Assembly (NCBI RefSeq): GCF_036507355.1
Contig: NZ_AP027879.1
DNA from: Escherichia coli
GTDB taxonomy: Bacteria > Pseudomonadota > Gammaproteobacteria > Enterobacterales > Enterobacteriaceae
Direction: 5' to 3' (one strand)
DNA length: 47,389 bases
In this document: positions 2,152 to 37,198 of the stretch, piece by piece
Position numbering within the stretch: the first letter of the stretch is position 1
How the letters are laid out: every line of letters starts with the position of its first letter
The notes under the pieces: model-generated
What the model saw: only the letters and a program-made list of their open reading frames with translations
What the model was told of the DNA's origin: nothing
Databases searched by the model: none
Program-made: the position numbers and the translations under genes

Positions 2152-3129
2152 ATGAGATATTTAACCGAATTGATCTGTGACCTCTACAGGTTGACAGATC
2201 ACCATAAACTGACCACAGCAACGTTTAAAAATCTTGCTGATATTAAGTTATTTAAACCTACAGCAGATGCAGACACCATATTGCAGCTTGAAAATATATT
2301 TAGCGAATACTCACTGAGATATATTGACAAGGATCTGGCTGAAATTCTGAGCAACTTAATAACTACAGATAAGAAACACTCTCTGGACTTCGATTTTAAC
2401 AAAATACAATCTCTGACTGACTCGAAAAGTTTCGGTTGTGGATGGAGCAAGGTAATAAATGGTAGTTGGTTCAAAGATCTTTATTCTTGGGGAGAGGGGA
2501 TGTATCCTGCCGAAAATCTGAAAGCTGAAAATATTTTAGACTGGAAAGATAATATATGGCACATTGAGCATGAAGGTTTCCCCCCACGCCCCCCTATTAA
2601 TGTTAAATATTATTCTTGGTTTGACCGATATGTAGCTTCAAACAGTGGTGGCTCACATCATGCAGCAATGGTTGTATATCAATCAGTCAGAGACGGGTTA
2701 GAGTATAAAAGAGAAGCTGTTATTAAACAACTGAGTATAGACCCAGGCACTGTTGAAATACTTGATAAGAATTACTATTCATTCATATTCCAGATCAAAA
2801 CCCTTAATAAAGAAACTAGAATTTATACATCTGAATACGAGTTTACAGATGCTTTAAAAGACTTTGGACAAAACAGACATACCATACTTAAACCTGTTAA
2901 TTACGTTTCCAACATAAAATTAGTATTTATTCCAAAAGATGCATTAAAAACAAATAGCGAGACATTCCGCAACTGGTTTCATTCTGCAATTAGCTGCGGA
3001 AAAATAATATCACTCCCTGATTATCTGAAAAATCCAGCACATTATCATACACTTCATTACTCACATGAAGTAGACTCAATAACACTTGGCGACCCAAGCA
3101 GAAAATTTAAACTGAAAGGAGATTCTTAG
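2152..3129 (+). CDS. Hypothetical protein, 325 aa, AT-rich, no recognised family
   Basis: Long uninterrupted ORF; no motif I can assign. Confidence 0.6.
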   Translation: MRYLTELICDLYRLTDHHKLTTATFKNLADIKLFKPTADADTILQLENIFSEYSLRYIDKDLAEILSNLITTDKKHSLDFDFNKIQSLTDSKSFGCGWSKVINGSWFKDLYSWGEGMYPAENLKAENILDWKDNIWHIEHEGFPPRPPINVKYYSWFDRYVASNSGGSHHAAMVVYQSVRDGLEYKREAVIKQLSIDPGTVEILDKNYYSFIFQIKTLNKETRIYTSEYEFTDALKDFGQNRHTILKPVNYVSNIKLVFIPKDALKTNSETFRNWFHSAISCGKIISLPDYLKNPAHYHTLHYSHEVDSITLGDPSRKFKLKGDS

Positions 3130-3482
3130 CTTTTATATAAAAAATCAATGTTATCATTTGTCAGAAGATCAGCGAGGGTAATACATTCAAGAACCACAAT
3201 ATTTGTTCCTTCCAACAAACTGGCATCAAGTATCTTATCGAAGCTGATAATCATCATTGGCTTGCGTTGTGTTAAATCAAAGATTACCAATGGAAGTATT
3301 ACACTGTTAATTAATTCAAACTCTTTAAAGAAAGCATCAGTGCCATACTCACTGGCTGGAAAAAGAATCTCAATTAATCTCACACCATAAAAAACATGGT
3401 AGTTTTCTTTAAGGTTATCCTTTAAAATATTAACAGCCTTAGTATATTTTTCGTTAATAAACTCTCTCACCTGATATTCCAT
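3126..3482 (-). CDS. Hypothetical protein, about 119 aa, convergent with the 325-aa ORF
   Basis: Likely start MEYQVREF at 3482 preceded by GGAG; ORF track extends to 3551; stop codons of the two genes overlap in ttag at 3126-3129. Confidence 0.5.
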   Translation of the reverse strand: MEYQVREFINEKYTKAVNILKDNLKENYHVFYGVRLIEILFPASEYGTDAFFKEFELINSVILPLVIFDLTQRKPMMIISFDKILDASLLEGTNIVVLECITLADLLTNDNIDFLYKS

Positions 3483-3618
3483 AAAATTCTCCGACAAGAA
3501 CCGACTGTAGGTCACCGGGCAAACGTTGCAGAATGGCGTCAGAGACGTCATTTTGCGGCGTTTGCCCTATCCTGCATCGCAGTGAAAAGGCAGGGACTGG
3601 CATAACTGCTGAGTAGCA

Positions 3619-3882
3619 TCATTGCTGGCTTATCTCGCTACTGTTCTCGGTGCTTTCGTCCGCAGGTTCGGGAACAAGTAACTTGTGCCAAGGCATAGTT
3701 TTGTTGAGCAGCTCCATCAGAGGCTCAGCCAGCAGTCCCAAAATCCAGGTTGCCGTAATCACCGGTATAGTCAGATTTTGTGGCGTCCATAACTGGTGAT
3801 CGAGATGATACCAAGTGATGACACACAAAATACCACCCAGCCAGAATACAGCCCATTTAAACGCACCAAGAATGGCTAACAC
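3619..3882 (-). CDS. Small hydrophobic membrane protein; possibly the C-terminal part of a gene interrupted by an in-frame TGA
   Basis: 87-aa hydrophobic ORF with GTG start; an in-frame upstream ORF (ATG at 4065, MAKIYQFPQGEERAKF, 41 codons) ends at TGA 3942-3940. Confidence 0.45.
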   Translation of the reverse strand: MLAILGAFKWAVFWLGGILCVITWYHLDHQLWTPQNLTIPVITATWILGLLAEPLMELLNKTMPWHKLLVPEPADESTENSSEISQQ

Positions 3883-4104
3883 AAAAACAAAGATAAAATG
3901 TAAAACACTCGCGACAAGAAGACGAAGATAAAACCATCCTCAGCCAAGCCACTTAACAAAAGTGCTCCCTGTTTTCACTGCAAAACGTTTCTTACGCTCC
4001 CTGGCAATTTCTTTCCTGAATTTAGCACGTTCTTCCCCCTGAGGGAATTGATAGATTTTAGCCATGAGCTACCTCATTTCGATCTCAAAACGAAGTTTAT
4101 GCAA

Positions 4105-4941
4105 TTATCCTCTGAAACCGTATGGTATTCTGATATCTAAGCCCTCACTTTCTTTATCTATTTTATAAGAAAACCTTAGCTTTGATGCTCTTCTTGCGAC
4201 TCTCTCAACGATTTTAACTTCGAGATGATTAATCTCTGTATATTGATTTATTTTTTCAATATTTTTTTGCAGAAAAACCTTATTAAAATCCTTAAAATTC
4301 TGATAAAGGTAAACTTTTTCGCCATTATCTATTCTGAATAATTCAAGTTCATCCTTTAATACATCTACTTCAATGTCGAAAAATGTCTTTTTACCACTGC
4401 TGTATTGTTTCCTGATAAACTGATAAAGCATATTTGAATTTTGATCAGCGAGTCTTACAGACGATATCAAAACCTGAGTAGTGTAAGAATCCTTTAACAT
4501 CGTGATATATGGCTCAATGACATGTGAAAAAGCAATATCAATATATCCTTCACTTTCAACATAATCACAAAACGCAGTCAGGTTCATAAGCCTGACTGCA
4601 TCAGAAGGTAATTTACCTCTCTTCTTCGTATGTCCAGAGCTTTGATTGCCCTGAGGTGTGAGAAGTTGATTTCGAGGAATGCGAATAACACTGGCCTGAA
4701 GTTCTTCTGCCCCCTCTTTCAACTGCCGGTAAGCACCTGTTACATCAATATCAGCGATAAATGCATATTCCCGAGCCGTAATACGAAAGGTTGCCCCCTC
4801 AGATAACTCTTCACGTGAATCAATCTGCGCCATAGCCATAAACAAAATTCTTCTGGCAGACAAAGGCAACGATGAGAATGTGCTGTTAATTTCATTTCTG
4901 TGGCGAATTTTTGTTTTCTTTGTAACGCTCAGTAAGTTCAT
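4105..4941 (-). CDS. repB: Rep_3-family iteron-plasmid replication initiator
   Basis: 278 aa; family assigned from overall resemblance to iteron-plasmid initiators; iterons and DnaA boxes lie directly upstream. Confidence 0.85.
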   Translation of the reverse strand: MNLLSVTKKTKIRHRNEINSTFSSLPLSARRILFMAMAQIDSREELSEGATFRITAREYAFIADIDVTGAYRQLKEGAEELQASVIRIPRNQLLTPQGNQSSGHTKKRGKLPSDAVRLMNLTAFCDYVESEGYIDIAFSHVIEPYITMLKDSYTTQVLISSVRLADQNSNMLYQFIRKQYSSGKKTFFDIEVDVLKDELELFRIDNGEKVYLYQNFKDFNKVFLQKNIEKINQYTEINHLEVKIVERVARRASKLRFSYKIDKESEGLDIRIPYGFRG

Positions 4942-5193
4942 ACATTACCTGTGGTTTTTAAGTTCTGATGGTGAAATCATAACCACAAAGGCGGAAATAT
5001 GTAAAGTGGTTTATCCACCTTATGTATTTCCACCAAAACACGGATCACATGAAAGAATTTTTATCATTTATATTCAATATGATAGAAATGCGCAGGTATC
5101 CACCTTTTAACGTCATACGTTAAATTAGAGCACTATAAAGAACTAAAGAAATGAAGATACAAAGATACGAATATCTGAATAAAAACAGAAAAA

Positions 5194-5313
5194 TGCGTAC
5201 CCATCCACCTTTCAGTGCGTACCCATCCACCTTTCAGTGCGCAGCCATCCACCTTTCATGAAAATTACAGTGCGTACCCATCCACCTTTCAGTGCGTACC
5301 CATCCACCTTTCA
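5194..5313. repeat. Five 22-bp iterons (TGCGTACCCATCCACCTTTCAG) of the Rep_3 replicon
   Basis: Five near-identical direct repeats, two plus one plus two with an 11-bp spacer. Confidence 0.75.
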
Positions 5314-5484
5314 TTTTGAGGCGACAAAAAACAACACCTATCTTAATGAAATTATTGATAAAAAAGCTGGCACAATGTTTGCAGAATAAGTTAAAGTAAG
5401 TTAAAGATCTTAAAGTAGATCTACCGATCTACATTTAAGATCTTAAAAACAAGAAGTTTAATAAGCAAAAAAACACAAAAAATC

Positions 5485-5532
5485 TGTGGATAACTCTGCT
5501 CAAAACAAAAAATTCACAGCGCCTGTGGATAA
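5485..5532. promoter_or_regulatory. Two DnaA boxes (TGTGGATAA) beside an AT-rich stretch; part of oriV
   Basis: TTATCCACA consensus at 5485-5493 and 5524-5532; AT-rich region 5340-5480. Confidence 0.5.
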
Positions 5533-6174
5533 CTTTGCGTAAACCCGGAGGACAGATCACTCTGAACCAAGACAACCACACATAAAAACAATATGCTCAT
5601 TTTTTAACCACTGTGCGTAAGTGCCTAATGTAATCCCTGTGCTATTCCGCTTCCTCGCTCACTAACTCGCTACACTCGGTCGTTCGGCTGCGGCGAGCGG
5701 TGTCTCCTTTCTCAAAACCAGAAGAGTTCAGCTCATACGATCCGTTGATTGATCCTTTTTGGATCTTTCACTGAGAAGCCCTGAATCGCTTTCTGCCGCT
5801 TCGTTCGATACAACCATGGTGAAACCATGCGAAATCGAAAAAATCGCTCAGAATGCGATACAGCGCGTTTTAGAGGGTATTTACAAAACAGTCGTTGCCT
5901 TGAGGAAATTTTGATCAAGATTGAACTCCTATCCGGATCATGGCAACAGATCACAGCAACAAGGCCGCTAAAAAGCGTTGAGCGGCGTTAAAAACCGTTA
6001 AACCGTAGCTGACTACAACGAAACGGGAAAAAACGCTCAGAACGCGTTACAGAGCGTTTTAAGGCGATGTCGGAAAGAGCCATATCTCACCTGTTCTGAT
6101 GTTTTTCTCAACATAAGCACTTTTAAGAGTGCTTTTAAAGATGCTATTATGCCAATGAGACAAGCGGAGGGCTT

Positions 6175-6426
6175 ATGAGCTATCAAATTCTGACAACTAC
6201 AGCGGCCAGTATTACTGACCTGAAAAAAAATCCTATGGGAACCGTAGCTGAAGGTGAAGGGGACGCTGTTGCGATCCTGAACCGAAACGAACCGGCGTTC
6301 TATTGCGTTCCACCAAAACTTTACGCCTACTATCGGGAACTCGCTGAAGATGCTGAGTTAAACGCTGTTGCTGATGAGCGCATGAAAAACCCGGAAATTG
6401 TGAAGGTTAACCTGGATGACCTATGA
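6175..6426 (+). CDS. stbD: Phd/YefM-family antitoxin
   Basis: 83 aa; overlaps the downstream toxin gene in typical TA arrangement. Confidence 0.85.
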   Translation: MSYQILTTTAASITDLKKNPMGTVAEGEGDAVAILNRNEPAFYCVPPKLYAYYRELAEDAELNAVADERMKNPEIVKVNLDDL

Positions 6427-6697
6427 ACTGGCTTTTGACCGTAGAGCACTGAAGGAATGGCAGAAACTCGGCCACACCATCCGTGAACAATTCAAAAAGA
6501 AACTGGCAGAACGGCTGGAAAATCCACGCGTACCCGCAGCCCGGTTACATGGTCATGCTGATCGCTATAAAATCAAACTTCGTGCATCTGGCTACAGACT
6601 TGTATACCAAGTCATTGATGAGAAAGTCGTTTTACTCGTTATTGCCGTTGGAAGAAGGGAAAGCAGCGAAGTCTATCAGATCGCAGATTTGCGCTAA
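6416..6697 (+). CDS. stbE: RelE/ParE-family toxin
   Basis: 93 aa; 11-bp overlap with stbD. Confidence 0.85.
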   Translation: MTYELAFDRRALKEWQKLGHTIREQFKKKLAERLENPRVPAARLHGHADRYKIKLRASGYRLVYQVIDEKVVLLVIAVGRRESSEVYQIADLR

Positions 6698-6771
6698 GAT
6701 TAATCATCAAATGATTGGTGATGCTGCCAACTTACTGATTTAGTGTATGATGGTGTTTTTGAGGTGCTCCA

Positions 6772-7469: not shown

Positions 7470-7484
7470 GTTGGAGTCATTACC

Positions 7485-7787
7485 AACCAGTTCACCACCT
7501 ACTCGCTCCGCGATTGTGGCAGTCTTCGAAATCCCCGGACGATCCGCCTTTATGAAAGTCTTGCTCAATTCAAATCTTCAGGCTTATGGGTTACTACTCA
7601 TGCTTGGTTAAATGACCGTTTCGTCTTACCGGAATCCCAGCAGAAGAACTTGGCAGAGTTGAAACGATCTTTCCTTGATCCTGCACTCAAGCAGATAAAT
7701 GAGAAAACACCTTTACTTGCTAAGTATAGTATTGATGATTCAGGAAAATTTCTGTTCTCAATAATTGATAAGCAAAATCCCGTCTGA
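7485..7787 (+). pseudogene. repA: 3' remnant of a second replication initiator gene, 5'-truncated by IS1
   Basis: Open frame from the IS1 junction encoding a Rep-like C-terminus (WLNDRFVLPESQQKNLAELKRSF...) followed by 37-bp iterons. Confidence 0.5.
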
Positions 7788-7837
7788 CATAAATCAGCAC
7801 ACATGAGCCTGTCATTTGACAAATTTTTGTCATGAAG

Positions 7838-8370
7838 ATGGGCGGATTTCCACACAGCACCGGCGCCCGGTAAGGTGGGCGGATTTCCACACAGCACCGG
7901 CGCCCGGCAAGGTGGGCGGATTCCCACACGGCACCGGCGCGCGGCAAGGTGGGCGGATTCCCACACGGCACCGGCGCGCGGCAAGGTGGGCGGATTTCCA
8001 CACAGCACCGGCGCCCGGCAAGGTGGGCGGATTCCCACACGGCACCGGCGCGCGGCAAGGTGGGCGGATTCCCACACGGCACCGGCGCGCGGCAAGGTGG
8101 GCGGATTTCCACACAGCACCGGCGCCCGGCAAGGTGGGCGGATTCCCACACGGCACCGGCGCGCGGCAAGGTGGGCGGATTCCCACACGGCACCGGCGCG
8201 CGGCAAGGTGGGCGGATTTCCACACAGCACCGGCGCCCGGCAAGGTGGGCGGATTCCCACACGGCACCGGCGCGCGGCAAGGTGGGCGGATTCCCACACG
8301 GCACCGGCGCGCGGCAAGGTGGGCGGATTTCCACACGGCACCGGCGCCCGGCAAGGTGGGCCGATTCCCA
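7838..8370. repeat. About 14 tandem 37-bp iterons (GGGCGGATTYCCACACRGCACCGGCGCSCGGCAAGGT); IncN-like origin array
   Basis: Head-to-tail direct repeats with two alternating variants; no spacers. Confidence 0.75.
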
Positions 8371-8861
8371 TATCGACATGTATGTAGCTTGTGTTATCTG
8401 TGGATTGTGCAGCTCAGCGGGTCGCTGGTCGTATGGCGGAGTGTCCCCCGTAACCGGCCGCGTGCGGCCGCTAACGCGCAGTACGGCGCCGCGTCCCGCA
8501 GACGGGCCGCCGTTCCCGCGCGCAGCACTGCGCACCCCCGTGGGGGACGTACGGCAGCTGCGTGGCGGTGAGCGGGATTAGGGCTTTGCAGCTACCGTGT
8601 TAAGTTCCCTGGTGTCGCTGAAATAGTTGATGAACATCCCCCTAAGCGTCAGCAGCAAGCTGCCGCCGCTTAGGCCCCGGAAATCACGCCCTTTACGTCG
8701 TAAACGCCGTAAAGCCCGCTCACCGGGGTTAAAAGGGATTACTTTGACTTCTTCATTGCTGTTCGCGAGTTAAGGCTAATCAGGGCAGGGGGTAGGGTGG
8801 CAGAATTTATAGCCCGGCAACCGGCTACGCCGGGCTTTCGGCGCCATTTTACAACACAGAC

Positions 8862-19901: not shown

Positions 19902-20600
19902 GTTTATTCTTCCTATACGTGCCGCGTTCCAGGCGGCGACTATGAGGGCTATGTCGATGCCCATGTGCGCCGGCTGGAGGCGCTACGCCGGGCCGGTATC
20001 GTCGAGCGGATCGACGCCGACCAATGGCGCATCCCCGATGATCTGGTCAGCCGTGCCGCCGCCCATGACGCCGGCCGAGACAGTCAGGCCAGCGTTCGCG
20101 TCCTTTCCCCGGTCGATCTGAACAAACAGATCGGATCGGACGGCGCGACCTGGCTGGACCGGCGGCTGATCCACGGCGAGACGGCCGACCTTGCGCCAAC
20201 CGGCTTCGGGCAACAAGTCCGCGAAGCCATGGACCAGCGCCGCGAGCACCATATCGAACAGGGCGACGCCACCCGCAGCCGGGACAGCCGCGTCTTCTAC
20301 CGGCGCAACCTTCTCGCCATCCTGCGGGAGCGCGAGGTAGCCGGCGTCGGATCGGATATGGCTTTGAGTAAGGGCCTGCCGTTCCGCGCCGCCACGGACG
20401 GCGAGAGCGTCAGCGGCAAGTTTACCGGAACCGTGCATCTATCGAGCGGCAAGTTCGCCGTGGTCGAGAAATCCCATGAGTTCACCCTTGTCCCGTGGCG
20501 GCCGATCATCGACCGCCAACTCGGCCGCGAGGTTATGGGCATCGTGCAGGGCGGGTCGGTGTCGTGGCAGTTAGGGCGGCAGAGGGGGCTGGAACGCTGA
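19902..20600 (+). pseudogene. Relaxase-like (VirD2-type) C-terminal fragment, as seen upstream of floR
   Basis: Frame is open from the IS26 boundary; no intact start; GC-rich. Confidence 0.4.
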
Positions 20601-24448: not shown

Positions 24449-25268
24449 GGCACTGTTGCAAAGTTAGCGATGAGGCAGCCTTTTGTCTTATTCAAAGGCC
24501 TTACATTTCAAAAACTCTGCTTACCAGGCGCATTTCGCCCAGGGGATCACCATAATAAAATGCTGAGGCCTGGCCTTTGCGTAGTGCACGCATCACCTCA
24601 ATACCTTTGATGGTGGCGTAAGCCGTCTTCATGGATTTAAATCCCAGCGTGGCGTTGATTATCCGTTTCAGTTTGCCATGATCGCATTCAATCACGTTGT
24701 TCCGGTACTTAATCTGTCGGTGTTCAACGTCAGACGGGCACCGGCCTTCGCGTTTGAGCAGAGCAAGCGCGCGACCATAGGCGGGCGCTTTATCCGTGTT
24801 GATGAATCGTGGGATCTGCCACTTCTTCACGTTGTTGAGGATTTTACCCAGAAACCGGTATGCAGCTTTGCTGTTACGACGGGAGGAGAGATAAAAATCG
24901 ACAGTGCGGCCCCGGCTGTCGACGGCCCGGTACAGATACGCCCAGCGGCCATTGACCTTCACGTAGGTTTCATCCATGTGCCACGGGCAAAGATCGGAAG
25001 GGTTACGCCAGTACCAGCGCAGCCGTTTTTCCATTTCAGGCGCATAACGCTGAACCCAGCGGTAAATCGTGGAGTGATCGACATTCACTCCGCGTTCAGC
25101 CAGCATCTCCTGCAGCTCACGGTAACTGATGCCGTATTTGCAGTACCAGCGTACGGCCCACAGAATGATGTCACGCTGAAAATGCCGGCCTTTGAATGGG
25201 TTCATGTGCAGCTCCATCAGCAAAAGGGGATGATAAGTTTATCACCACCGACTATTTGCAACAGTGCC
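24449..25268 (-). mobile_element. IS26, complete (copy c)
   Basis: 14-bp IRs, 820 bp. Confidence 0.95.
24501..25205 (-). CDS. tnp26: IS26 transposase Tnp26, N at position 184
   Basis: Same protein as copies a and b. Confidence 0.95.
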
Positions 25269-25600
25269 CCGGTAACTATCAACTTGAGTCCAACCCGGAA
25301 AGACACGACAAAACGCCACTGGCAGCAGCCATTAGTAACAGGAGTGCACGAGAAGATAGATTAAGAGGTCTTGAAGTAGAGGCCTGACTGCGGCTACACT
25401 GAAAGAACAGTTTTGGTAATGGCGGTCTCGTGAACCCTGTTACCGGGTTAAGCAGTTCCCCAACTGACTTAACCTTCGAACAAACCGCCTCCCCAGGCGG
25501 TTTTTTCGTTTACAGAGCAAGAGATTACGATTCATTGAAAAGGATCTCAAGAAGATCCTTTGTAGATTACTATCAATTAATCTTCCGAACATGACACCAG
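25269..25600 (+). other. ColE1-type replicon remnant (RNAI/RNAII control region); origin proper deleted by IS26
   Basis: Colinear with the pBR322-type ori region from CGGTAACTATC..TTGAGTCCAACCCGG through AAAGGATCTCAAGAAGATCCTTTG. Confidence 0.5.
25407..25506 (+). ncRNA. RNAI-like antisense RNA of the ColE1-type remnant
   Basis: Position matches RNAI in ColE1-type origins; ends in hairpin plus T-run CCGCCTCCCCAGGCGGTTTTTT. Confidence 0.4.
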
Positions 25601-29788: not shown

Positions 29789-30988
29789 GTGAAACCCAAC
29801 AGACCCCTGATCGTAATTCTGAGCACTGTCGCGCTCGACGCTGTCGGCATCGGCCTGATTATGCCGGTGCTGCCGGGCCTCCTGCGCGATCTGGTTCACT
29901 CGAACGACGTCGCCGCCCACTATGGCATTCTGCTGGCGCTGTATGCGTTGATGCAATTTGCCTGCGCACCTGTGCTGGGTGCGCTGTCGGATCGTTTCGG
30001 GCGGCGGCCGGTCTTGCTCGTCTCGCTGGCCGGCGCTGCTGTCGACTACGCCATCATGGCGACGGCGCCTTTCCTTTGGGTTCTCTATATCGGGCGGATC
30101 GTGGCCGGCATCACCGGGGCGACTGGGGCGGTAGCCGGCGCTTATATTGCCGATATCACTGATGGCGATGAGCGCGCGCGGCACTTCGGCTTCATGAGCG
30201 CCTGTTTCGGGTTCGGGATGGTCGCGGGACCTGTGCTCGGTGGGCTGATGGGCGGTTTCTCCCCCCACGCTCCGTTCTTCGCCGCGGCAGCCTTGAACGG
30301 CCTCAATTTCCTGACGGGCTGTTTCCTTTTGCCGGAGTCGCACAAAGGCGAACGCCGGCCGTTACGCCGGGAGGCTCTCAACCCGCTCGCTTCGTTCCGG
30401 TGGGCCCGGGGCATGACCGTCGTCGCCGCCCTGATGGCGGTCTTCTTCATCATGCAACTTGTCGGACAGGTGCCGGCCGCGCTTTGGGTCATTTTCGGCG
30501 AGGATCGCTTTCACTGGGACGCGACCACGATCGGCATTTCGCTTGCCGCATTTGGCATTCTGCATTCACTCGCCCAGGCAATGATCACCGGCCCTGTAGC
30601 CGCCCGGCTCGGCGAAAGGCGGGCACTCATGCTCGGAATGATTGCCGACGGCACAGGCTACATCCTGCTTGCCTTCGCGACACGGGGATGGATGGCGTTC
30701 CCGATCATGGTCCTGCTTGCTTCGGGTGGCATCGGAATGCCGGCGCTGCAAGCAATGTTGTCCAGGCAGGTGGATGAGGAACGTCAGGGGCAGCTGCAAG
30801 GCTCACTGGCGGCGCTCACCAGCCTGACCTCGATCGTCGGACCCCTCCTCTTCACGGCGATCTATGCGGCTTCTATAACAACGTGGAACGGGTGGGCATG
30901 GATTGCAGGCGCTGCCCTCTACTTGCTCTGCCTGCCGGCGCTGCGTCGCGGGCTTTGGAGCGGCGCAGGGCAACGAGCCGATCGCTGA
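29789..30988 (+). CDS. tetA: Tetracycline efflux MFS pump TetA, class A (variant copy)
   Basis: 399 aa from GTG at VKPNRPLIVILSTVALDAVGIG; three aa differences from the second copy. Confidence 0.95.
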   Translation: MKPNRPLIVILSTVALDAVGIGLIMPVLPGLLRDLVHSNDVAAHYGILLALYALMQFACAPVLGALSDRFGRRPVLLVSLAGAAVDYAIMATAPFLWVLYIGRIVAGITGATGAVAGAYIADITDGDERARHFGFMSACFGFGMVAGPVLGGLMGGFSPHAPFFAAAALNGLNFLTGCFLLPESHKGERRPLRREALNPLASFRWARGMTVVAALMAVFFIMQLVGQVPAALWVIFGEDRFHWDATTIGISLAAFGILHSLAQAMITGPVAARLGERRALMLGMIADGTGYILLAFATRGWMAFPIMVLLASGGIGMPALQAMLSRQVDEERQGQLQGSLAALTSLTSIVGPLLFTAIYAASITTWNGWAWIAGAALYLLCLPALRRGLWSGAGQRADR

Positions 30989-36051: not shown

Positions 36052-36297
36052 TCATATCTGTCGGAGTGTGGTGATACTCCTTTGCATTAAAAATGCGCTG
36101 ATAAAAGGTAGTTCAGCAAAAGGCGAAACGCCAATAAATATATCTATAACCGGTTTCGCCCGTTGATTGGGTATCGCCGTGCTTCCGATATGTTCAATGG
36201 CTACGGCATGAGAACCGAAAAAATGGAGCAATTTTATTTTCTCTTCTTCAAAATTCTTTGTCCAATCCGGGTTATATTCCATAATTTCAATTTTCAT
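36052..36297 (-). pseudogene. GrpB-like (UPF0157) N-terminal fragment
   Basis: 81-aa ORF with GSTAIP motif; much shorter than full-length family members. Confidence 0.3.
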
Positions 36298-36334
36298 GAT
36301 AGTTTCGTCCTTGCCTCAAAAACCATGTTTGGTA

Positions 36335-37198
36335 TTATACTCCATATCTCTCCGGTGCAGGAATAGCCTTTTCTGATGCACGGCTAACAGCTTCCCATTC
36401 TTCCCAGGTAGCCATCCGTGCTTTTAAGGTATCCATCGCCAAATCGTATACCATGCTGCCAAGGATAAGCCTCAAAGGCGGATTATTGCTGGCTACTAAT
36501 TTCATAAGGGCTTCCGCTGCCAAGGAAGGATCACTATCGACCGAATCTTCGGAATACTGTTTCGCCAGCTCATCGCGCAGTGTACCGTATGAATCTAATG
36601 GATTGCTGTAACTCATCGAAGTGTATAAATCTGTCCAATATCCTCCTGGTTCCACCATAGTGAGTTTCACTCCGAAATGTTCCGCTTCTTTTGCTAAGGC
36701 TTCACTCATTCCTTCCAGCGCAAATTTACTTGCACTGTAAATACCAGACATCGGACCCGAGATAATAGCGCCAATGCTTGTAATCTGTATGATATGTCCA
36801 GAACGCTGCGACCTCAAATAGGGCATCACTGCCTGACAAACCCAAAGAGCTCCAAAAAAGTTTGTGTCCATTAGTTTCCGAGCATCGGATTCGTTTAGTT
36901 CTTCAATCATACCCATAGTCATGATACCCGCATTATTAACAACAATATCAAGCCTACCGAAATGTTTAACTGCTGTTTCAACCGTAGAAAAAACAGCCTC
37001 CCTATCTGTAACATCGAGGTTTAATGGCAGTAAGCTCTCTTGATATGTTTCTTCTAGCTTCGCCAAATTATCGATAGTCCTTGCAACTGCAACAACTTTA
37101 TCCCCGGCTTTCAAGGCGGCGCATGTAAAAGCATAGCCAAGCCCCTTGCTTGCTCCGGTAATAAACCATACTCTTTTATTTTCGCTATTAGGTATCAT
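36335..37198 (-). CDS. Short-chain dehydrogenase/reductase (SDR)
   Basis: 287 aa; TGASKGLG Rossmann motif and YSASK catalytic motif. Confidence 0.75.
   Translation of the reverse strand: MIPNSENKRVWFITGASKGLGYAFTCAALKAGDKVVAVARTIDNLAKLEETYQESLLPLNLDVTDREAVFSTVETAVKHFGRLDIVVNNAGIMTMGMIEELNESDARKLMDTNFFGALWVCQAVMPYLRSQRSGHIIQITSIGAIISGPMSGIYSASKFALEGMSEALAKEAEHFGVKLTMVEPGGYWTDLYTSMSYSNPLDSYGTLRDELAKQYSEDSVDSDPSLAAEALMKLVASNNPPLRLILGSMVYDLAMDTLKARMATWEEWEAVSRASEKAIPAPERYGV

Follow-up and report, generated by a model that had tools for sequence, protein, structure and literature searches.

Sequence comparison assigns the replicon of a multidrug-resistance plasmid from Escherichia coli to the IncX1 group

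The origins of P1 (oriR), F (ori2, with RepE), pSC101 and pPS10 share a general layout, in which one or more distal DnaA boxes, an AT-rich stretch and directly repeated iterons are joined to a rep gene with an inverted-repeat operator; P1 oriR has GATC sites in its AT-rich stretch, and the gamma origin of R6K uses integration host factor (IHF). For IncX1 plasmids, which have been represented by the pir (repX) gene of pOLA52, five is the normal number of iterons upstream of repX, and bis and ddp3 normally follow the gene (PMC3402527), in the order pir-bis-ddp3 (PMC3402527, PMC3332091). The replicon-side copy of the IncX long inverted repeat is the site of oriT-beta and ori-beta (PMC3402527, PMC3332091), and the IncX1 plasmid pECTm80 has R6K-like alpha, beta and gamma origins, with 96% identity to the origin region of R485 (PMC3332091). 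Here we analyse the replication region of a 47,389-nucleotide stretch of Escherichia coli DNA (contig NZ_AP027879.1 of assembly GCF_036507355.1; "the window" below means this whole stretch), in which a first-pass annotation, made without database searches, had placed a probable primary replicon at 4105-5540. We estimate a probability of roughly 95% that this region is the basic replicon of an IncX1 plasmid, comprising pir and a gamma-type, iteron-controlled theta origin and organized essentially as in pOLA52 (coordinates of all features in Table 1).

The comparison with pOLA52 carries this assignment. Between the two plasmids, pir shows 0 differences in 837 nucleotides and encodes a shared RefSeq protein (WP_001050931.1, also found in plasmids with an identical replicon), and the promoter, the putative operator, the sixth iteron and the AT-rich stretch are likewise identical; a single base differs across the five iterons (in iteron 4, at 5279) and another between the DnaA boxes (5513). 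Both plasmids have five iterons in a 3+2 arrangement, two DnaA boxes and the order ddp3-bis-pir-origin-stbDE, and from ddp3 to stbE (window 3238-6717) they are collinear and gap-free at 98.65% identity, with 33 of the 47 differences falling in ddp3 (7.75% diverged). Such near-identity argues against the view that the repeats and boxes are a decayed remnant that no longer supports initiation, like the one-iteron IncX replicon of pMO17/440_54. Remnants of this kind do exist, since a Citrobacter braakii plasmid in which IS5 has taken the place of pir retains four iterons and lacks an IncX1 typing, and a 77-bp deletion that leaves one iteron is on record (PMC3402527); for the window, where initiator gene, promoter and putative operator are unchanged from the reference, we regard decay as next to negligible.

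Furthermore, pOLA52 and five plasmids with an identical replicon are typed IncX1 (MOB-suite/PLSDB). Because pir is identical to that of pOLA52 and because of this typing, the incompatibility group can be assigned from sequence comparison as IncX1, contrary to the first-pass annotation, which had held that sequence alone could not settle it. Among seven checked relatives carrying the replicon, six are typed IncX1, five of which are plasmids of 27-39 kb without any other replicon; plasmids in which an identical pir is the sole typed replicon measure 27.1, 29.4, 37.3 and 38.8 kb. A 1701-bp query (4000-5700) is 100% identical to at least 30 plasmid records, and at least 80% of it is present in 643 records, which come for the most part from Escherichia, Salmonella and Klebsiella. 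The replicon is an already known, very common, standard IncX1 module, and it offers nothing new for replication biology.

Each component of the module has the properties expected of a Rep_3 iteron theta replicon. The pir product matches both Pfam winged-helix families of such initiators above their curated cut-offs (Rep3_N, PF01051, E 1.9e-19; Rep3_C, PF21205, E 9e-06), in agreement with the earlier call of a Rep_3 initiator. Its best match among solved structures is R6K pi bound to an iteron (2NRA, E 6.3e-52, residues 3-265 aligned), followed by pPS10 RepA (1HKQ, E 2e-07). Judged by this alignment it is a full-length homologue of R6K pi, as is characteristic of IncX.

At higher plus-strand coordinates than pir, that is, upstream of the gene, the 22-bp iteron unit TGCGTACCCATCCACCTTTCAG starts at 5194, 5216, 5238, 5271 and 5293 with 0, 0, 3, 0 and 1 mismatches, respectively, and does not occur in any of 100 shuffles. 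The start-to-start spacings are 22, 22, 33 and 22 bp. Because the spacer that divides the array equals half an iteron length, the helical phase of the five iterons would be kept, and all five would lie on one face of the helix. The sixth, degenerate iteron belongs to repeat families D2 and D3 and matches the iteron core at 5098-5106; the core, ATCCACCTT, occurs seven times in the window, every copy within 5013-5310. The five iterons and the sixth together form the direct-repeat array that adjoins the rep gene in Rep_3 replicons, and the five match the number usual for IncX1. Small open reading frames annotated across the iterons and origin in some records (for example MF554637) were treated as gene-caller artefacts.

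Beyond the iterons, the AT-rich stretch has 27% GC, compared with a backbone value of 41% and 53% over the whole window, and it is bordered by the only two perfect DnaA boxes in 47,389 bases (0.23 expected), which stand 39 bp apart. One box lies in each copy of a direct repeat of about 39 bp (5468-5504 and 5507-5543). AT-rich DNA and DnaA boxes beside iterons are again the Rep_3 arrangement. Inside the AT-rich stretch, four GATC sites fall within 40 bp (5406-5442), which is the only such cluster, and the densest, among the 247 GATC sites of the window; as a single strand, the palindromic block that contains them folds at -13.7 kcal/mol, well outside the range of shuffled sequence (z = -8.05). 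All three features (iterons, AT-rich stretch and DnaA boxes) greatly exceed chance expectation. The first-pass annotation had recognized these three features, and each proved to be where it was proposed; it lacked the 11-bp spacer, the sixth iteron, the inverted repeat at the pir promoter and the four-GATC block.

Table 1. Features of the IncX1 replicon and its flanks (window coordinates)
Feature	Coordinates	Strand	Description
ddp3 (DNA distortion polypeptide 3)	3126-3482	minus	NCBIfam DDP3 equivalog, E 2.4e-50; RefSeq annotation in identical plasmids
IncX long inverted repeat, replicon-side copy	3477-3586	none	overlaps start of ddp3
bis homologue	3619-4065	minus	downstream of pir; gap-free alignment to the 148-aa open reading frame of pOLA52
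pir (repX)	4105-4941	minus	278-aa pi-type Rep_3 initiator with WH1 and WH2 domains
Predicted pir promoter	4976-5005	minus	-35 TTTACA (5005-5000), 18-nt spacer, -10 TATGAT (4981-4976)
Inverted repeat I2	4990-5034	none	arms 4990-5009 and 5015-5034, 20 nt each, 5-nt gap, 80% complementary
Sixth, degenerate iteron TGCGCAGGTATCCACCTTTTAA	5089-5110	plus	16/22 bases; 105 bp from iteron 1; orientation as the others
Iterons 1-3	5194-5259	plus	three contiguous 22-bp units; 0, 0 and 3 mismatches
Spacer GAAAATTACAG	5260-5270	none	11 bp, half an iteron length; divides the array 3+2
Iterons 4-5	5271-5314	plus	0 and 1 mismatch
AT-rich stretch	5315-5484	none	27% GC; presumed DNA-unwinding region
Palindromic four-GATC block AAGATCTTAAAGTAGATCTACCGATCTACATTTAAGATCTT	5403-5447	none	inside AT-rich stretch
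DnaA box 1 TTATCCACA	5485-5493	minus	perfect; conserved in 6/6 aligned relatives
DnaA box 2 TTATCCACA	5524-5532	minus	perfect; inside second copy of the ~39-bp direct repeat
ssiA / n'-pas-like segment	5641-5717	none	homology to ColE1-type plasmids; 110 bp beyond the DnaA boxes; outside the region of the first-pass annotation
stbD-stbE toxin-antitoxin pair	6175-6697	plus	flanks origin in IncX1 backbone; annotated in relatives

The region between pir and the iterons carries a putative control element. The predicted promoter is the best sigma-70-like match within 3900-6200 (10 of 12 positions, as a consensus match only), and a ribosome-binding site, AGGT, can be read about 8 nt ahead of the pir ATG. 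This promoter, the only good match near pir, is overlapped at its -35 by the left arm of inverted repeat I2. The repeat is made of partial iterons, and its right arm holds the iteron core at 5013-5021. Inverted partial iterons over a rep promoter are present here as the sequence feature associated with autoregulation in Rep_3 replicons, among which they are the usual operator arrangement, and we presume by this resemblance that I2 is the operator at which initiator dimers would repress the gene. A DnaA box with one mismatch, TTATCCACC, lies within the putative operator at 5011-5019; boxes of this quality occur across the window at chance frequency, and only this copy merits mention.

Alignment of relatives to window 4942-5560 indicated which parts of the origin vary. 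Iteron number changes by whole 22-bp units, pPE15-27K having six iterons through one extra unit. In pN17S323-2 (~90% identical), the 3+2 iterons are kept and there is one DnaA box (box 2 is missing) with one copy of the 39-bp repeat. The 11-bp spacer is present in the aligned IncX1 relatives, and the sixth iteron is conserved in the close ones among them; a 72%-identical relative does not align over the stretch of the sixth iteron. This same relative has different iteron flanks (GGCATAGCCATCCACCTTTCGC), but its iteron core, its GATC block and its two DnaA boxes are nearly unchanged. Because the GATC block and DnaA box 1 are near-invariant even there, the segment from 5403 to ~5500, with the GATC block and DnaA box 1, is on this alignment the most constrained part of the origin.

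We read an R6K-type origin in the IncX2 plasmid pEBG1, which was used in place of R6K itself (LT827129). The order of elements is shared (pir, a promoter with partial iterons, the iteron array, an AT-rich stretch and a DnaA-box-like site), as are the 22-bp period and orientation of the iterons, CGTAC at equal positions within them, and ddp3 and bis downstream of pir. The two origins nevertheless differ in detail. The pi protein of pEBG1 has 305 aa and is 40% identical to the 278-aa initiator of the window; its iterons are seven and contiguous, whereas the window has five in 3+2 plus the sixth, and only 9 of 22 positions agree between the pEBG1 and IncX1 units; at the distal end there is one imperfect box (TTGTCCACA) in place of two perfect tandem boxes; and a cluster of three GATC sites (L015 42376-42396) lies on the pir-proximal side of the iterons, whereas that of the window lies inside the AT-rich stretch. 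P1 oriR, F ori2, pSC101 and pPS10 are further removed: they belong to other incompatibility groups, their initiators are only distantly similar, and their iterons (~19-22 bp) are unrelated in sequence to those of the window.

The elements, their statistics and homology, the IncX1 identity and the absence of another complete replicon (below) are observed here; how they would act, through initiator binding, origin opening, autorepression and handcuffing, is projected from the homologous R6K pi system and from other Rep_3 replicons. Initiator monomers would bind the five iterons on one helix face; host DnaA at the two far-end boxes would, together with the initiator, open the AT-rich, GATC-bearing stretch between boxes and iterons, and DnaB would be loaded at the opened DNA. 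At the pir promoter, dimers of the initiator would occupy the inverted partial iterons and thereby repress the gene that encodes them, and iteron-bound initiators on sister copies would pair ("handcuff"), which would limit copy number and produce IncX1 incompatibility.

Whether this module is the replicon that maintains the plasmid depends on what else the DNA carries. In 81 plasmids, at 100% identity, the last bases of the window continue directly into its first, so that the window is most likely a whole circle, probably a complete plasmid of 47,389 bp; these last bases we take to be the end of a Tn1721-type inverted repeat. Of the window's length, some 6.7 kb is IncX1 backbone and some 40 kb is resistance DNA rich in IS26 and transposons. 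Most of the larger open reading frames (at least 110 aa) were scanned against NCBIfam or Pfam, and the rest (IS1, IS26, strA/strB, tetR/tet(A)) were named by eye, with IS1 and IS26 confirmed by BLAST against pOLA52. The family matches were to transposases, resistance genes, a resolvase, ParA, DDP3 and a truncated RlxS relaxase, and among open reading frames of this size no initiator gene other than pir was found, which agrees with the earlier statement that the window holds one intact initiator gene.

A ColE1-type element at about 25270-25560, which would prime replication with RNA and need no initiator protein, could in principle serve as the working replicon instead. An Rfam scan found a complete, full-length RNAI at 25408-25509 (plus strand; 73.9 bits against a gathering score of 47), within a remnant that spans ~25269-25560 and adjoins sul2. 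The end of IS26 at 25268, however, cuts RNAII about 245 nt from its start. The ColE1 origin lies about 555 nt downstream of the RNAII start, and in the window the rest of the primer and the origin are gone past IS26, with neither a rop gene nor downstream origin sequence following. We therefore rejected this element as a second working replicon, and consider it scarcely credible as the one that drives the plasmid. The only complete replicon in the window is the IncX1 module.

It could also be supposed that the working replicon lies outside the window, in a larger plasmid (multi-replicon or cointegrate) in which the IncX1 module travels as a passenger or has a secondary role. Identical IncX1 modules do occur in multi-replicon plasmids, such as the 117-kb pPIMMR (IncI-gamma/K1 and IncX1), and many of the replicon matches sit in plasmids of 90-290 kb. 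Against this stand the end-to-start junction in 81 plasmids, the intactness of every element of the module and its identity to the reference (save the two bases given above), and the plasmid pO189_X1, which at 33.5 kb is typed IncX1 only and has the same tet(A)-resolvase-parA-DUF6685-ddp3-pir-stbDE arrangement as the window. We consider a passenger role very unlikely. The first-pass reading of a primary replicon is hence upheld by an initiator homologous to R6K pi, collinearity with pOLA52, sole occupancy of typed 27-39 kb plasmids and the lack of a second complete replicon in the window.

Several observations weigh against the IncX1 basic-replicon reading. Circularity is drawn from relatives only, a strict pattern search for the IHF consensus WATCAANNNNTTR gave no match in the origin, and the region does not amount to a full three-origin IncX system. 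Although the IncX order ddp3-bis-pir-origin is present with the long inverted repeat at ddp3, bis is interrupted: relative to the 148-aa open reading frame of pOLA52 it carries a nonsense change (TGG to TGA at base 3940, W42stop; stop codon 3940-3942), with a possible GTG restart at 3882 that would yield an 87-aa C-terminal open reading frame. The stop is common to four other plasmids (pCP53-38k, pPIMMR, E. coli H2 plasmid A and pO189_X1). In pOLA52, moreover, the long inverted repeat at 36246-36355 pairs with a second copy at 30691-30800 at 94.5%, whereas no partner of the replicon-side copy was found in the window. IS1 cuts the IncX1 backbone at 6717, just past stbE, and the window lacks the pOLA52 backbone beyond this point (the alpha-side inverted repeat, ddp1, relaxase and type IV secretion genes). 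The absence of paired long inverted repeats lowers the case for a complete IncX replication region, and not that for an IncX1 gamma-type replicon. Because the alpha-side repeat is missing and bis contains a stop codon, initiation probably relies on the gamma-type origin alone, which is the simplest expectation.

Two host controls beyond the usual description of R6K can be put forward tentatively, although we hold the proposal doubtful. The GATC block is a candidate for Dam/SeqA control or for DNA unwinding, and in the proposal it would act as an opening site controlled by Dam methylation and SeqA. The second candidate is the ssiA-like segment, which has 87-97% identity over 58-77 nt to small plasmids, mostly of 2-10 kb (at least 5,000 matching records), and is also common to IncX1 and some 33-kb plasmids. 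In one small plasmid (L009) the homologue is placed between the rop gene and RNAI, some 120-190 bp beyond where the origin is expected; ssiA (n'-pas) is presumably located at roughly this distance downstream of the ColE1 origin, matching the position of the homologue. Since neither strand of the segment forms an exceptional hairpin compared with shuffles (z = -0.4 and +0.7), its assignment as ssiA-like is one of homology and position. In ColE1, ssiA is a PriA primosome assembly site that is exposed as polymerase I extends from the origin (PMC3167613). The segment is therefore a possible PriA primosome loading site, as a lead only. If the proposal were true, replication in this alpha-less, bis-broken lineage would depend on the gamma-type origin together with the GATC block and the ssiA-like segment.

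On the far side of the origin, stbDE, named as a locus of R485 (PMC3402527), encodes a toxin with a Pfam ParE_toxin match (E 3e-14) and an antitoxin with a weak Phd/YefM match below the curated cut-off. On the other side of the replicon, a parA-type ATPase gene (1086-1748) is flanked by arrays of TAAAGA/TCTTTA repeats at 835-1070 and 1768-1812. The repeats are about 36 bp apart, in direct and inverted orientation, and precede a small CopG/ParG-like open reading frame (1846-2127); the arrays are probably the partition site and operator. Between these partition genes and ddp3, 2152-3129 (plus strand) encodes a 325-aa DUF6685 protein, where pOLA52 has a different ParA-family gene.

Elsewhere in the window, 19965-20600 (plus strand) encodes the C-terminal part of an RlxS-type relaxase (model positions 442-651 of 654), left over from another mobile element and adjoining floR and an ISCR-family (IS91-like) element. 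The stretch 7484-8855, which lies between IS1 and an IS5-family element, holds long overlapping open reading frames on both strands; these match no family and are not annotated in the near-identical plasmid pKFS-D29_2.

The IncX1 assignment classifies a multidrug-resistance plasmid, whose cargo comprises qnrS1, floR, sul2, sul3, APH(6) aminoglycoside-phosphotransferase gene fragments, tet(A), blaTEM and a DfrA-type trimethoprim-resistance gene. Because the window has neither the partner repeat nor any of the tax and pilX transfer genes, the plasmid is probably neither conjugative nor self-mobilizable, which is in keeping with the small, non-conjugative IncX1 derivatives that form a widespread family, mainly in E. 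coli, with many members from pigs and poultry.

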